In this document: positions 15,506 through 25,373 of the stretch, piece by piece
How positions within the stretch are numbered: position 1 is the stretch's first letter
Layout of the letters: each line of letters opens with the position of its first letter
Sequence record: SRR16203515_940
Reading direction: 5' to 3' (one strand)
DNA length: 43,472 bases
The notes under the pieces: generated by a model
The model's input: only the letters and a program-made list of their open reading frames with translations
What the model was told of the DNA's origin: nothing
The model's database searches: none
Made by a program: the position numbers and the translations under genes

Positions 15506-16162
15506 TTAAACCGATTTTCGCTCTCTTTTAAATTTTGATTTAAATTCTTTTTTTGTACGACGCGCAAATTCCTTGCCGTCTTCTATTTTTGATTTGAAAG
15601 TTTCTTTCTGATCTTCAGCATCAAAGGAGTCTAGATTGTTTCCTGCTTGGAAATGTTGTGCGAATATCTTTCCTACCGCGTAGGTGTGACTAACGTTAAT
15701 GACTGCGAGCGGGGCCACAAGTCCAAAATAACCTATGCCTGGCACCAGTTTTCCAAGACTAGTAAATGTTGCTGAAGACATTCCGGCAATAAGAATAGTG
15801 ATCGCCTTTTTCGCTTTACCCTGTGAGAACGGAACGTCATAAAGTTCCGATAATTCTTGGACGAGCTTTACCTGAATCGTCGTCATCGCCGCTAAGTCGA
15901 TGATGGGGACCGGAATGAGTGCTGCTGAGAAAGACCAGTAACAGTAATATTTGATTGTGTTGTTTGCTGCCTTTATTCGAATTTCGTCGCTTGCCAGCTC
16001 CTCTGACTGATATTGCTCAGTAGATGAAGTGCCAGGACCAGACGATTCCCTGTCGGTCCCGCTTGAACTCTCGTGGTTAAACTCATCAGCCTCGTAGAGA
16101 CGCCGTCGCCTGCGAGATGAAGATGAGGAATTGGACTCTTTGGGATCGGTATTTTCTATCAT
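15506..16162 (-). CDS. DUF697/YcjF-like membrane-associated protein with a disordered N-terminal extension
   Basis: Core LIPVPIIDLAAMTTIQVKLVQELSELYDVPFS...KLVPGIG...TYAVGKIFAQHFQAG; clear paralogue of 18898..19395; ATGA overlap with parA. Confidence 0.75.
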   Translation of the reverse strand: MIENTDPKESNSSSSSRRRRRLYEADEFNHESSSGTDRESSGPGTSSTEQYQSEELASDEIRIKAANNTIKYYCYWSFSAALIPVPIIDLAAMTTIQVKLVQELSELYDVPFSQGKAKKAITILIAGMSSATFTSLGKLVPGIGYFGLVAPLAVINVSHTYAVGKIFAQHFQAGNNLDSFDAEDQKETFKSKIEDGKEFARRTKKEFKSKFKRERKSV

Positions 16163-17106
16163 GAGGTTTTGTCTGAAATGTTGTTCGGATTAAGATGTAA
16201 CATAGCGCGCACCGCAAAATCGTAATCCAACTGGGCCTTTTTTGCTTTTGGAAAATCGAACACGGTTCTGTTTCGTTCTTGGGCTTGGGCAAAGTAGGAG
16301 CTTGTCCGAATTGGTTGAGCAATAACGCGGTCGCCATAACGTTGCTTTAGATCCGCAAGCACGGATTCGCTCATTTTAATCCGACGATCAAAATGTGTTA
16401 GAAGAATAAAAATCTTCGGTGGCTTCATCCCGAACGCTTCCGAGATCGCCTCAGTTTCGCTTATTGTTAGATCAATTCCTCTTAAGGCAAAACTATCCGC
16501 AGTCGTAGGGATGATTAGCTTACTCGAAGCGCATATTGTCGAAATGACTCCCGCCCCCAGAGATGGTGGGCAGTCAACAAATATCAAATCATTTCCCATC
16601 TTAAAAAGTTCATCGCAGCATTCCTTTACGGCATTTTTTTGAGAGATTGGCCGGGACAGCTGAAGGTCAAGCAGACTGTTATCAAGAGAAGAGGGGAGAA
16701 GGCTTAATTGCGCGTCGATGTTAATTAATGCGGATGACACCTCTTCCGGCTTATCCCAGAACTCGATAAATGGGCGTGCTGTTTCTGACTGGTCCTGCGC
16801 GAGCATGAATGTTGCCGACGCTTGAGCATCGATATCAAGCAGGCATGTTTTAAGTCCAAAATCACATGATCGCCGGGCACACGTGACTGAAGACGTTGTT
16901 TTGCCAGTGCCACCTTTGAGATTGATGAATGCGATGACATCACGCTGGGCGAGAAGGCCGTGCGCTTCAAGCTTTTCACGAACGACTGAGGGCGGAATAA
17001 AAAGATCAGTATTTTTATCAGTTGGTCGACCAGGCGTTAGGGACGGTTCTTCCGGGATAACCGATGGATTACCGATAATTTTGTTGAGTTCCGAGGCTTT
17101 AATCAC
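16159..17106 (-). CDS. ParA/Soj family ATPase (orphan, no ParB nearby)
   Basis: Deviant Walker A NLKGGTGKTTS, LLDIDAQASAT (A'), IFVDCPPSLG (Walker B) and TxFDRR. Confidence 0.88.
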   Translation of the reverse strand: MIKASELNKIIGNPSVIPEEPSLTPGRPTDKNTDLFIPPSVVREKLEAHGLLAQRDVIAFINLKGGTGKTTSSVTCARRSCDFGLKTCLLDIDAQASATFMLAQDQSETARPFIEFWDKPEEVSSALINIDAQLSLLPSSLDNSLLDLQLSRPISQKNAVKECCDELFKMGNDLIFVDCPPSLGAGVISTICASSKLIIPTTADSFALRGIDLTISETEAISEAFGMKPPKIFILLTHFDRRIKMSESVLADLKQRYGDRVIAQPIRTSSYFAQAQERNRTVFDFPKAKKAQLDYDFAVRAMLHLNPNNISDKTS

Positions 17107-17163
17107 TTGGCTGGGGTTCTTCAGGTCAGAAATAAGGTTTTCGGATTAACGCGATTGGAGGTC

Positions 17164-23120: not shown

Positions 23121-24488
23121 TTATTTATCTAATGTAACAATTTTGAGTTTCCCGTCTTCACCTTCTCTGAACTGACGGAAGATAACCGTAGAATGCTCAA
23201 GATTTCGATAGGATTGATTGAAGTTATAGGGTCCTGTAGCGCCATACCACGTTGGCATATGATACCGAATATTTAGTGCAACCGAGCCGGGGTCGGTCGA
23301 TTCGGCGCAAAGAAAGGCAGTATAGAGAAACCGGAGATGGTCATATCCGAGTGCCGCATAATTTGTCGCTTCGTAATCTGGGAAACGCTTTTTAAACGAT
23401 TCAGAAAATCGTTTGGCGATTAACGACCGATCGGGGGCATAAATATCAATGAACGTAAATCCCGCGTACATATCCTTCTCCACCTTTTCATAGGCGTCCA
23501 GCCGGCTCGCGGCAAGCATCGGGGGCGTCATTTTAAGCATTTCAAGTTGCTTGAAAATCAGCATTGCGAGCTCGTGCTCAACGAGGAGGAATAAGCCGGT
23601 TTCACCGGGCTCAGGAGCCGATTCTTGCTTCAATCCAGAGTTACTGAGCAAGTTTTCAGGCTTAAGTCTTTTCACTAGCTCTTGGGTGACTCGAGCGACT
23701 GTCGCTGTGTTATCTCCGGCTTTTGCCTGGAAGGAAAAAATTTCAATAGGATCAATACCAGTTTTGGCTAGATGCTTCATGAAGTTTGGGATAGGATCCT
23801 CAGAAGAGCCATAGATACTTCTTTGTTGAATAATAATTAGGCGCTTTACGCCAGCACTTTTGGCAAAAGTCGCAGCTCGTTCAGAGATTGTTGTGATGGT
23901 TGGAAACAGTTGAAAGGCGAGTGGCGCTTTCATTCCTGAGAAACGTTCCGCGGTGGACGTAGAGGCTAAAAATAAGATGCCCGCTCTCTCATAAGATAAT
24001 AGCGCATTGGTCGCGGTTTGATCCGCATAGGCATGACCAACGACCGCGACATTGGCATGGTTCTCTAATATTTTTTCAGCGATTCCCGAAGCAGCAACCT
24101 GAGCGGCATTCCGGTATCGTCCATCATATGACTGCTTATAGTTCGCCGACGCCAGAAACGGCGCGGCATCAATCTGGTTAATTTTTACTTCTGGAAAACG
24201 GTCGCTCGGCATGGCGTTGATTTCATCGGCTGCAAGCTGGACGCCTAGCCAGAACTCATCGGTCAGGGCATCAGAGTTCCAGACCGCTGCTATTTCGATC
24301 GGGATATTATTTTCAATGTAGTGACTAAGAGGCGCTCCTCGATCAATGGATGACTCCTCCGCATCGTACATGGTGAAAAAATCACCCAACGATTTCCTGG
24401 CGCTTTCAGGATCGGAGCAACCCGAAAAGAGCGCTAATGCACTCAGCACGCCGAAGACTCTGAAAGCAGAGAATTTTTTATTTACCAT
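23121..24488 (-). CDS. LivK/branched-chain-type solute-binding lipoprotein
   Basis: Lipobox-like LALFSG-C, GVQLAADEIN, VAVVGH, YERAGILFL, YAALGYD and WYGATGPYNF. Alternative start 24512. Confidence 0.75.
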   Translation of the reverse strand: MVNKKFSAFRVFGVLSALALFSGCSDPESARKSLGDFFTMYDAEESSIDRGAPLSHYIENNIPIEIAAVWNSDALTDEFWLGVQLAADEINAMPSDRFPEVKINQIDAAPFLASANYKQSYDGRYRNAAQVAASGIAEKILENHANVAVVGHAYADQTATNALLSYERAGILFLASTSTAERFSGMKAPLAFQLFPTITTISERAATFAKSAGVKRLIIIQQRSIYGSSEDPIPNFMKHLAKTGIDPIEIFSFQAKAGDNTATVARVTQELVKRLKPENLLSNSGLKQESAPEPGETGLFLLVEHELAMLIFKQLEMLKMTPPMLAASRLDAYEKVEKDMYAGFTFIDIYAPDRSLIAKRFSESFKKRFPDYEATNYAALGYDHLRFLYTAFLCAESTDPGSVALNIRYHMPTWYGATGPYNFNQSYRNLEHSTVIFRQFREGEDGKLKIVTLDK

Positions 24489-24527
24489 TCTTTGTGACCG
24501 CTGGGATTGCAAACATATGCCCGGGGC

Positions 24528-25373
24528 TTACTGATTACCGAGAATCACGGGCAGGCCTTCTTTGCCAGATCCGATGATCACAACTTTTGCGTTGTCTGAC
24601 TCGGCAAGATTTTGAGTCGCTTGGACTGCTTGCCATTTCAAGAGTGTTTCGTTGAGGGTTGCCGAGATGATGTCTTGGTAAACCATTGTGCCGATGGCTT
24701 CAACGCGTTTTCGTTCCGCCTCTCGTTTTTCTCGTTCGAGACGAAACTTGTAAGCGAGGCTTTCTTGTTCATATATGAGTTTACTTTCGATCGCCTCCCG
24801 AACAGGATCCGGCAGTCTGAGTTCGCGAATAATAATATCTTCGACATTTACGAATCGTCGACCAACCTCCTCGATCGCGAGCGTGATAATGTTGCTGAGC
24901 ACACCAGCCTTATTAGTGTAGATATCCTCCGGCGAATACTGCCCGATCTGTCGGCGAAGTACGGATTCAATTTGAGGAAGGATAATTCGCTCGGGATACT
25001 CTGGCCCAACCTGTTGATGAAGAAGGCCCACGAGCTCATAAATTGGGTGATACCTGACTGCGAGGCGAAGATCAATCGGAAGGCCTCGATTAGTCAAAAC
25101 GGTGAACTCATGAAGCAGGATTTGGGTTCGAGTGCTATATCGCGTGAGCTGATTAAATGGCCAAACGATATGGAGGCCCTTGGGATAGACAATATCGGTT
25201 TGTGTCCCGGTCGTGAACGTTCGGTACATGACGGCGGCCTCACCTGGCCGCACAATGATAAATATTCGACTCCATAAAAAAACAATTAGGATCGCTAAAA
25301 TGAGAGTTAAAACTACAAAAACGGGAAGATGATCCTTGAACCACAGTGCGAATTTGTTTAAAGCCTTTTTCAT
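24528..25373 (-). CDS. SPFH/band-7 (prohibitin-like) membrane protein
   Basis: N-terminal TM helix, PGEAAV, GLHIVWPFN, LHQQVGPEY..RIILPQIESVLR, coiled-coil EKREAERKRVEAIG and C-terminal NAKVVIIGSGKEGLPVILG. Confidence 0.9.
   Translation of the reverse strand: MKKALNKFALWFKDHLPVFVVLTLILAILIVFLWSRIFIIVRPGEAAVMYRTFTTGTQTDIVYPKGLHIVWPFNQLTRYSTRTQILLHEFTVLTNRGLPIDLRLAVRYHPIYELVGLLHQQVGPEYPERIILPQIESVLRRQIGQYSPEDIYTNKAGVLSNIITLAIEEVGRRFVNVEDIIIRELRLPDPVREAIESKLIYEQESLAYKFRLEREKREAERKRVEAIGTMVYQDIISATLNETLLKWQAVQATQNLAESDNAKVVIIGSGKEGLPVILGNQ

Follow-up and report, generated by a model that had tools for sequence, protein, structure and literature searches.

A putative accessory gene cassette recurring beside NRPS and PKS genes, and its extended copy at the edge of a hybrid PKS-NRPS island

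Introduction

Gene clusters for nonribosomal peptide synthetases (NRPS) and polyketide synthases (PKS) have as standard accessories a SyrD/PvdE-type pump of the ATP-binding cassette (ABC) class and a type II thioesterase (TEII). Beyond this pump, it is poorly understood how Gram-negative bacteria export large amphiphilic NRPS/PKS products without damaging themselves. In other settings, SPFH oligomers enclose a membrane enzyme, as in the cages of HflK/C with FtsH and of prohibitins with their proteases, and ParA-type ATPases of known systems are stimulated by N-terminal arginine-rich peptides. Here, we examine a stretch of 43,472 nucleotides (sequence record SRR16203515_940; hereafter the window) in which a block of eleven genes (15506-25373), several of them related to these protein families, lies between purL and the first gene of a PKS. 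Judged by comparison with other genomes, the window locus appears to be an extended, rearranged copy of an undescribed, recurrent NRPS/PKS accessory cassette.

A preliminary description of the block had offered its gene combination as one lacking a functional account, and our literature searches agree with this, as we found no paper on SPFH, DUF697, 60-residue and LivK-fold proteins with an NRPS/PKS pump, and none linking DUF697 or SPFH to NRPS/PKS export. By title and abstract, nothing among the DUF697 papers listed dealt with natural-product export, and nothing on Arenicellales and polyketides bore on the cluster. For DUF697 with biosynthetic gene clusters, the match listed was a study of soybean rhizobacteria and salt tolerance that names DUF697 once. 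SPFH combined with nonribosomal peptides gave no paper, whilst a looser search gave, among the matches listed, only stomatin and prohibitin biology. The main text of the kasumigamide paper, in the portion accessible, contains none of the terms band 7, prohibitin, SPFH, ABC transporter or periplasmic; a 'cyclic peptide transporter' does appear in Table 1 (PMC5061366).

Results

A six-gene core recurs beside NRPS/PKS genes

Six of the eleven genes appear, on sequence comparison, to be a copy, with some local rearrangement, of a cassette found repeatedly beside NRPS/PKS genes in distant bacteria. Domains were called with Pfam and NCBIfam on the open reading frames (ORFs) of the window, using curated or gathering cut-offs. 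The core comprises a DUF697 gene, DUF697b (18898-19395, + strand; PF05128, 54.2 bits against a cut-off of 27.7), a SyrD/PvdE-type ABC exporter (19620-21272, +; TIGR01194 cyc_pep_trnsptr, 344.2 bits against 286.2, with PF00005) and a TEII (21269-21970, +; PF00975, 128 bits against 26.4, motif GHSMGG), together with a 60-residue micro-protein, orf60 (22927-23109, − strand; two hydrophobic, presumed transmembrane, segments and no Pfam family), a LivK-fold lipoprotein of 455-463 residues (23121-24512, −; lipobox LFSGC, fold assigned by model) and a prohibitin-like SPFH protein (24528-25373, −; PF01145, 101.4 bits against 23.6). In the window, the SPFH, DUF697, 60-residue and TIGR01194-type ABC genes lie within 6.5 kb, next to the PKS, and the same four-gene set stands beside NRPS/PKS genes at L014, L101, L165-L168, L170, L171, L124, L126 and L127.

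A counterpart was found by a profile scan of the genome collection, on a contig of a Desulfobacteraceae metagenome-assembled genome (MAG; L014). Its first part runs through a DUF697 gene, a 67-residue orf60 homologue, a lipase-like gene, a pyridoxal-phosphate enzyme and an inserted restriction-modification pair; the second continues with DUF697, the ABC exporter (39% identity), SPFH (48%), a Peripla_BP_6 protein (147.3 bits on PF13458), a 61-residue orf60 homologue, TEII and a phosphopantetheinyl transferase (PPTase). The two copies of the orf60 homologue are 37-45% identical to orf60 of the window. One of the DUF697 genes stops 25 nt before a modular PKS, which is followed by a beta-lactamase-fold gene, KASIII and an NRPS of the order aminotransferase-C-A-PCP-C. 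Matching accessory genes therefore sit beside a broadly matching assembly line in a second phylum. The inserted pair (4360-6419 of L014) consists of a HindVP-type restriction endonuclease and a C-5 cytosine methylase, and lies in the middle of the cassette.

To place these two loci in a wider context, the SPFH protein was used as query against even draws of 401 genomes per phylum, and about 10 kb on each side of the matches was fetched and compared with the proteins of the window and L014; several of these flanks were cut by contig ends. In Pseudomonadota, 20 of the 401 genomes matched at E ≤ 1e-30, and all 20 places outside the family genome G001, which carries the block itself, were fetched. 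At least one cassette gene was present at 19 of these, with LivK-like genes at 16 places, DUF697 at 15, an orf60 homologue at 7, a full-length SyrD-type ABC exporter at 4, PPTase at 4, TEII at 3 and NRPS/PKS genes at 9. The NRPS/PKS neighbours occurred in 5 of 11 Pseudomonadota families other than the window's own. In Desulfobacterota, 28 of the 401 genomes matched and 20 of 29 places were fetched, namely the best 16 after the query's own and four chosen weaker ones, with eight weaker places left out. All of the best 16 places carried cassette genes (orf60 homologue at 11, DUF697 at 9, TEII at 8, PPTase at 7, LivK-like at 6, and ABC at 10, or 11 with a 390-residue match in L160), and 10 carried NRPS/PKS genes. 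The four weaker places had neither a cassette gene nor NRPS/PKS.

Across both phyla, other cassette genes accompanied SPFH at 35 of 40 places and NRPS/PKS genes were found in the fetched flank at 19 of 40; DUF697 adjoined SPFH or ABC at 24 of 40 and an orf60 homologue was present at 18 of 40. No NRPS/PKS gene was found at the five SPFH places without cassette genes (0/5), and none of 11 generic LivK-family loci taken as a control (L015-L025) had SPFH, DUF697, the 60-residue protein or PKS/NRPS genes. The preliminary description had proposed testing whether SPFH, LivK-like, 60-residue and DUF697 genes co-occur with FAAL/PKS/NRPS and SyrD-type genes across taxa, and L014 together with these counts answers this in the affirmative.

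Within the window's own genus, a compact DUF697-orf60-ABC-SPFH set was found beside other PKS/NRPS genes in three genomes (G235, G236 and G237), where the SPFH proteins are 34-35% identical to the query proteins. Since these type-2 SPFH copies of the genus come with a cassette at 34-35% identity, and the SPFH gene at L174 comes without one at 38%, SPFH identity fails to separate cassette from non-cassette places, and counts are therefore reported by place. Five loci of one genus (L093, L096, L097, L099 and L100) have an SPFH-adjacent DUF697 ORF of about 290-300 residues, the start of which is possibly over-extended by longest-ORF calling; in these, a SyrD-type ABC gene is absent from the flank, and an NRPS and a short C-domain gene are adjacent. 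This arrangement is a distinct sub-architecture of the cassette.

Properties of the core proteins

The closest solved sequences to the SPFH protein are prohibitin-2 (3.8e-13), prohibitin and HflC (4.4e-6). By NCBIfam, it is neither the HflK nor the HflC equivalog (HflC 28.4 bits against 134.4, HflK 17.5 against 159.4), the block holds one SPFH gene rather than an hflK-hflC pair, and no stomatin-NfeD operon is seen, there being no NfeD family among the Pfam matches of the 12 block ORFs. The protein has a single N-terminal transmembrane segment, and lysine and arginine are richer in the N-flank than in the C-flank of this segment in 28 of 31 orthologues. By the positive-inside heuristic, this excess points to an N-in orientation with the SPFH domain in the periplasm, on the lipoprotein's side. 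The protein is thus likely anchored N-in, with its SPFH and coiled-coil part periplasmic.

The lipoprotein gene, which probably begins with the ATG at 24488, is always adjacent to the SPFH gene. Its product has no Pfam match even at E ≤ 10, and its homologues carry PF13458. An AlphaFold model (AF2; mean predicted local distance difference test, pLDDT, 83.0) matched 4q6b, 4mlc, LivJ and LivK in Foldseek with E-values of 8e-20 to 1e-15 (4q6b 8e-20 and 4mlc 8e-19, with TM(target) scores of 0.84 and 0.86), and a profile of the lipoprotein family matched 4mlc at 3.2e-14. The model thus predicts the type I periplasmic-binding-protein fold of LivJ/LivK, and the earlier label "LivK-like" was apt on the grounds of both the Foldseek match and PF13458 in the homologues. 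None of the 29 window ORFs scanned encodes a permease or ATPase of a LivHMGF importer. The family is tiny, with 16 homologues at E ≤ 0.001 in a protein collection of 5.8 billion clusters and members in 2 of 243 genomes of the order. When the periplasmic portion of SPFH was modelled together with the mature lipoprotein, without use of the supplied alignments, the score was 0.00, which speaks neither for nor against a complex.

The model of DUF697b (pLDDT 83.4) is all-alpha with six helices. Foldseek found no PDB structure similar to it at E ≤ 0.001 (best 0.57), and the best VIA-align Z-score, 6.9, lies under the chance level of helical bundles. The micro-protein orf60 has a conserved GFWG..F..S.LLTP motif, and its nearest neighbours in a protein atlas are annotated 'hypothetical protein'. 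The ABC exporter is a half-transporter with fused transmembrane and nucleotide-binding domains, in which TIGR01194 covers residues 28-542 and PF00005 residues 359-492, with five hydrophobic segments in the N-terminal half.

Gene layout and expression of the block

Between purL (11546-15478), the left neighbour of the block, and the first PKS gene lie eleven real genes in three operons. Operon A, on the minus strand, consists of orf117 (17164-17517), a gene without a family whose product has a signal anchor with one N-terminal hydrophobic segment, a ParA-like ATPase gene (16159-17106; AAA_31 95.6 bits, CbiA 52.7 bits) and a second DUF697 gene, DUF697a (15506-16162; PF05128, 42.9 bits against a Pfam cut-off of 27.7). 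Operon B, on the plus strand, starts with a porin gene (17709-18716; Porin_4 37.5 against 27, Porin_1 24.9 bits), continues with DUF697b, the ABC exporter and TEII, and ends with a gene for an SBP_bac_3-like protein, secreted or anchored (21948-22880; PF00497, a marginal 31.8 against 26.4). Operon C, on the minus strand and divergent from the PKS, consists of the SPFH, lipoprotein and orf60 genes. All reading frames of the block are kept in two genomes of the family, G001 and G006, at 75-100% amino-acid identity. There, orf60 is 100% (G001) and 95% (G006) identical, whilst the overlapping plus-strand ORF at 22810-23001 is broken in G006; orf60 is therefore the real gene and that ORF is not.

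Every gene named in the preliminary description was found where it had been placed, and orf117, left unnamed there, is an addition. The translational coupling noted earlier is likewise present, as an ATGA overlap between parA and DUF697a and a TTGATG overlap between ABC and TEII. As to the shared promoter region proposed for the SPFH operon and the PKS, the two are divergent across a gap of 276 bp, but no promoter was predicted in that gap. The promoter and terminator scan of 15400-25700 gave counts that did not exceed those of shuffled sequence, with 11 sigma-70-like sites against a shuffle mean of 14.7, none of them in the SPFH-PKS gap.

Short contigs matching the window at ≥95% identity occur in four RNA libraries, each from a different study, and include parts of every operon as well as of the PKS. 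These libraries consist of contigs only, from which strand, transcript ends and expression levels are not readable and in which uncovered parts are uninformative; such libraries can also hold DNA, and the contigs are evidence of presence only, not of co-transcription. Summed contig depth was highest over the DUF697b bin (18669-19335) in three of the four libraries (16.6, 12.7 and 15.6, against roughly 0-6 elsewhere). Genes cannot be ranked by contig depth, and a high RNA abundance of DUF697b is therefore no more than hinted at.

Additions confined to the window's genus

The ParA-like ATPase, orf117, the porin and the SBP_3-like protein matched nothing at any of the 40 surveyed SPFH places, and are therefore confined to the window's genus. 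The genomes compared suggest a genus-specific layer, with the porin ahead of DUF697b-ABC, the SBP_3-like gene behind TEII, and a separable operon of the ParA-like ATPase, DUF697a and orf117.

The ParA-like ATPase belongs to the ParA/MinD superfamily by AAA_31, CbiA and its deviant Walker A motif, KGGTGKTT, and has a 55-residue N-terminal extension. It scores under the cut-offs of all 12 matching NCBIfam models, including SopA and the equivalogs ParA_partition (71.8 against 180), RepA (59.7 against 348), BcsQ (32.2 against 157.85) and MinD (27.1 against 212.9). The subfamily is narrowly distributed: among 46 family genomes, no others than G001, G006, G013 and G237 gave a match at ≥55% identity, and at E ≤ 1e-28 it was found in one of 401 phylum genomes, which is G001. 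Its partner DUF697a has two hydrophobic segments and an acidic, serine-rich linker, and bears the motif R[RK]RRRLY[ED] near its N-terminus and a basic tail at its C-terminus, features that are present in 6 of 6 ParA-coupled orthologues and in 0 of 9 other aligned DUF697 proteins. By analogy with the ParA-type systems introduced above, the arginine-rich motif may stimulate the coupled ATPase. The pair is a membrane-tethered ATPase and partner whose link to the island is positional only.

In G237, whose PurL is 92% identical to that of the window, ParA and DUF697a lie between purL and the ETF-QO gene with their 4-nt overlap kept and with nothing else of the island; orf117 is absent from this genome. 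The genome's own cluster is about 10 kb away, past ETF-QO and four ORFs that match in length the ETF-QO neighbours of G005. In the same interval of G012 (L056, 543-870), ParA is gone and a decayed remnant of DUF697a is left, most like the G237 version, whose N-terminal domain half and C-terminal tail are read in different frames.

As a paralogue of the general Gram-negative porins, the porin is specific to the island, with two copies of 41-43% identity elsewhere in G001 and in G006; paralogues also occur in the island-less genomes G232 and G237. The SBP_bac_3-like protein scores 19.2 against 256 on TIGR01096, and is lineage-specific and fast evolving. Also fast evolving is orf117, which is 75-91% identical in G006 and G001 and has no Pfam or NCBIfam match.

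Conservation within the lineage

A profile scan of metagenomes with the lipoprotein alignment gave 16 loci. In all 16, as far as the contig ends, the gene order is purL, DUF697a, ParA, (orf117), porin, DUF697b, ABC, TEII, SBP_3, orf60, lipoprotein, SPFH, PKS, and seven of the loci span purL to PKS; orf117 was undetected in L038 and L043. The 16 loci make up about five sequence types and are therefore not sixteen independent cases, and since every one is linked to purL, they may have been inherited vertically in a single lineage. Against a reference of 65-70% identity for PurL, conservation was very uneven, four core proteins having higher values (SPFH 85-87%, DUF697b 73-84%, ABC 70-77% and orf60 70-78%), with lower values for TEII (50-54%) and the lipoprotein (46-55%, over the longer matches). 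The remaining genes gave 51-72% (porin), 55-58% (ParA), 53-60% (DUF697a), 37-44% (SBP_3) and about 30-37% (orf117).

The PKS-NRPS island and its surroundings

As read from the window and related genomes, the block is the left 10 kb of an island of about 58 kb that encodes a FAAL-primed hybrid PKS-NRPS. Of 46 family genomes, 3 carry the island between purL and the ETF-QO gene, as do 16 colinear metagenome contigs. Where it is absent (G015, G005, G016 and G012), purL is directly followed by ETF-QO (557-565 residues, on the other strand); in G001, the two genes are about 58 kb apart, with cassette and PKS-NRPS between them. All eleven genes consequently fall inside one insertion or deletion unit, since this span of G001 contains both the cassette and the assembly line. 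DNA identity over the block is 97% in G001 and 87% in G006, whilst the fragmented genome G013 matches in pieces at 63-76%. A search of 19 genus genomes with the block DNA gave 13 matches, 10 of which were to the 3' end of purL only.

Recent transfer of the island was also considered, and gave no signal, as the flanks are 96% (G001) and 89% (G006) identical and the block 97% and 87%, respectively. At the 3' end of purL (15000-15478), the last 159 residues of PurL are 86% (G001) and 71% (G006) identical, with adjacent cassette proteins at 75-99%; G012 is 96% identical over the same residues. The island junction is thus locally more diverged than its surroundings.

The PKS starts at 25650 (+ strand) and continues past the window end (43471), its domains, called with Pfam, reading FAAL-ACP-KS(*)AT-DH-KR-ACP, KS-AT-DH-KR-ACP and KS-AT-DH-cMT. 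Read from the window and G001 together, modules 1-3 of the assembly line are FAAL-ACP-KS-AT-DH-KR-ACP, KS-AT-DH-KR-ACP and KS-AT-DH-cMT-KR-ACP. These are followed by KS-AT, then a 3-hydroxyacyl-CoA dehydrogenase, an acyl-CoA dehydrogenase, a HAD-type protein and an ACP, and finally by aminotransferase-C-A-PCP, KS-AT-KR-ACP, C-A and sulfotransferase-C-A-PCP-TE. The two dehydrogenases, the HAD-type protein and the free-standing ACP were located in G001 (L047, 976-5554; L048, 997-2828), and such a set is typical of unusual extender-unit synthesis. Two family-less genes stand at the far end of the island in G001, before ETF-QO.

An in-frame TAA at 28563-28565 splits the first KS of the window (...TAPNPNA*VTVMK...). 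Glutamine stands at this position in 12 of 12 related loci, including two metagenome contigs 99% identical to the window, and the stop, private to the window, is either a nonsense mutation or an assembly error. Other frames are split as well: the G006 copy of the ABC gene (L002, about 6802-6806) aligns in two frames, ETF-QO is broken into two pieces in G001 (L050, 971-2646), and several PKS ORFs of G001 are split (L047). These look like indel errors of single-contig assembly, or real decay.

Upstream of purC/purL, window positions 1-10800 hold genes for an AMP-ligase, a MaoC dehydratase, two GT28-type and two GT4 glycosyltransferases, a GNAT protein, an S58 peptidase and a histidine phosphatase. 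G237, which lacks the island, has the GT4 genes and ldcA/dapA at 89-96% identity, and these therefore belong to the core genome, outside the island.

Discussion

On balance, the block is probably the envelope-facing accessory end of the PKS-NRPS island, composed of a conserved six-gene core with genus-specific additions; its mechanism in export or protection is one that we infer. By analogy with described systems, the ABC half-transporter would pump the amphiphilic product from the cytoplasm, and an SPFH oligomer, facing the periplasm as HflK/C and prohibitins do, would enclose this exporter. The DUF697 and 60-residue membrane proteins may join the oligomer to give a bounded membrane patch, and the binding-protein lipoprotein may take up or sense the product in the periplasm. 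This would serve to export the product, to shield the membrane of the producing cell against an amphiphilic lipopeptide, or both. A bolder version can be offered only as speculation that we think unlikely to hold in full: an SPFH enclosure round the ABC exporter with DUF697 and the 60-residue protein, and with the LivK-fold protein as receiver, would be a dedicated export compartment that shields the bilayer and is widespread across phyla, extended in this genus by a private porin and by a ParA acting through the arginine-rich tail of the DUF697 paralogue.

Several observations weigh against the reading of the block as an accessory end given to export or protection. NRPS/PKS genes were absent from the fetched flank at 21 of the 40 places, several of which are short contigs. 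Four loci (L090, L094, L159 and L161) show no synthetase despite at least 10 kb on at least one side, and the trio of SPFH, periplasmic binding protein (PBP) and DUF697 therefore also occurs away from synthetases, or more than 10 kb distant from them. A SyrD-type ABC gene near SPFH at 4 of 20 Pseudomonadota places means that the pump is not an obligate neighbour, and in the window itself ABC and SPFH stand in separate, convergent operons. The surveyed genomes are not independent, with 8 of 19 Pseudomonadota genomes from one genus and 2 from another, and the Desulfobacterota counts were taken without kinship information. With regard to the local additions, G237 and G012 indicate that the ParA-DUF697a pair is separable from the island, and general porins normally pass small hydrophilic solutes and are ill-suited to a lipopeptide.

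The preliminary description had read all eleven genes as a single machine, in which ParA positions the megasynthase, the ABC exporter moves the product, two binding proteins chaperone it and the porin releases it. A conserved envelope module linked to biosynthetic clusters survives from that proposal; for ParA, orf117, the porin and the SBP_3-like protein, membership is not supported, as they were found at 0 of 40 places, with the ParA subfamily in 1 of 401 genomes. It speaks for a single machine that all eleven genes lie inside the island bounds and are colinear in G001, G006, G013 and, to the contig ends, the 16 metagenome loci, that the porin is an island-specific extra paralogue heading the DUF697b-ABC operon, and that ParA at ≥55% identity occurs only in genomes that also have the SPFH-ABC cassette (G001, G006, G013 and G237). 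However, colinearity in a single lineage is equally expected from vertical inheritance, the ParA-DUF697a pair of G237 is split from the nearest cluster by ETF-QO and four ORFs, and G235 and G236, both incomplete MAGs, have the compact cassette without such a ParA. A role for all eleven genes in one machine thus seems distinctly improbable.

Two further explanations concern the core itself. SPFH, DUF697 and the 60-residue protein might stabilize the inner membrane against the cell's own lipopeptide, with the binding protein sequestering stray product. Quality control of membranes involves SPFH proteins such as the prohibitins and HflK/C, the latter together with FtsH; the SPFH-PBP-DUF697 trio stands without a nearby SyrD-type pump at 16 of 20 Pseudomonadota places, and the associated clusters are often lipopeptide types containing FAAL or an aminotransferase. 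We nevertheless hold pure self-protection to be unlikely, given that ABC directly adjoins SPFH at 10-11 of the best 16 Desulfobacterota places and that no resistance phenotype is known; it also overlaps with export. The LivK-fold lipoprotein could alternatively be a sensor of an amino-acid precursor or of the product, with SPFH and DUF697 relaying the signal to the pump or the assembly line. Modulation of channels and transporters by SPFH proteins is known elsewhere. The binding protein itself is an orphan, with importer permease and ATPase genes absent from the block, and amino acids and aromatic acids are the ligands of its closest solved folds. As Pfam and NCBIfam found no transcription factor, kinase or other signalling domain in the block, such a regulatory role appears very improbable. 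We therefore retain the envelope-facing accessory end, with its six-gene core and local additions, as our interpretation of the block.

If this interpretation holds, four uncharacterized partners (SPFH, DUF697, the 60-residue protein and the LivK-fold lipoprotein) that accompany pumps and synthetases in at least two phyla become concrete targets for study, and bacterial prohibitin-like proteins and DUF697 would gain a testable client. Possible uses include better heterologous production of lipopeptides and a genome-mining flag for clusters of this kind.

Comparison with known systems

Of the described systems, LivJ/LivK importers have binding proteins that share with the window lipoprotein the type I PBP fold, predicted here, and, through its homologues, PF13458. 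Unlike those, the window protein has a lipoprotein signal, lacks LivHMGF genes nearby, is always encoded beside SPFH and belongs to a very small family. The ParA-like ATPase resembles BcsQ, MinD-MinE and ParA-ParB in its deviant Walker A motif and in its coupling to a partner with an arginine-rich peptide, but this partner belongs to the DUF697 membrane proteins and is not a DNA-binding ParB, and the pair also occurs without the island. As in the HflK/C-FtsH and prohibitin cages, the window SPFH protein has one N-terminal transmembrane segment, likely oriented N-in, and its gene stands beside a membrane machine. In contrast to HflK/C-FtsH, genes for FtsH and NfeD are absent from the block by Pfam and NCBIfam, and the presumed client is an ABC exporter. 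In its pump, the block matches the SyrD/PvdE/YojI exporters with their TEII, since its ABC protein scores over the TIGR01194 cut-off and its TEII gene overlaps the ABC stop codon; it differs from those systems in that the pump, in the window as at many of the surveyed places, is accompanied by SPFH, DUF697 proteins, the 60-residue protein and a LivK-fold lipoprotein.

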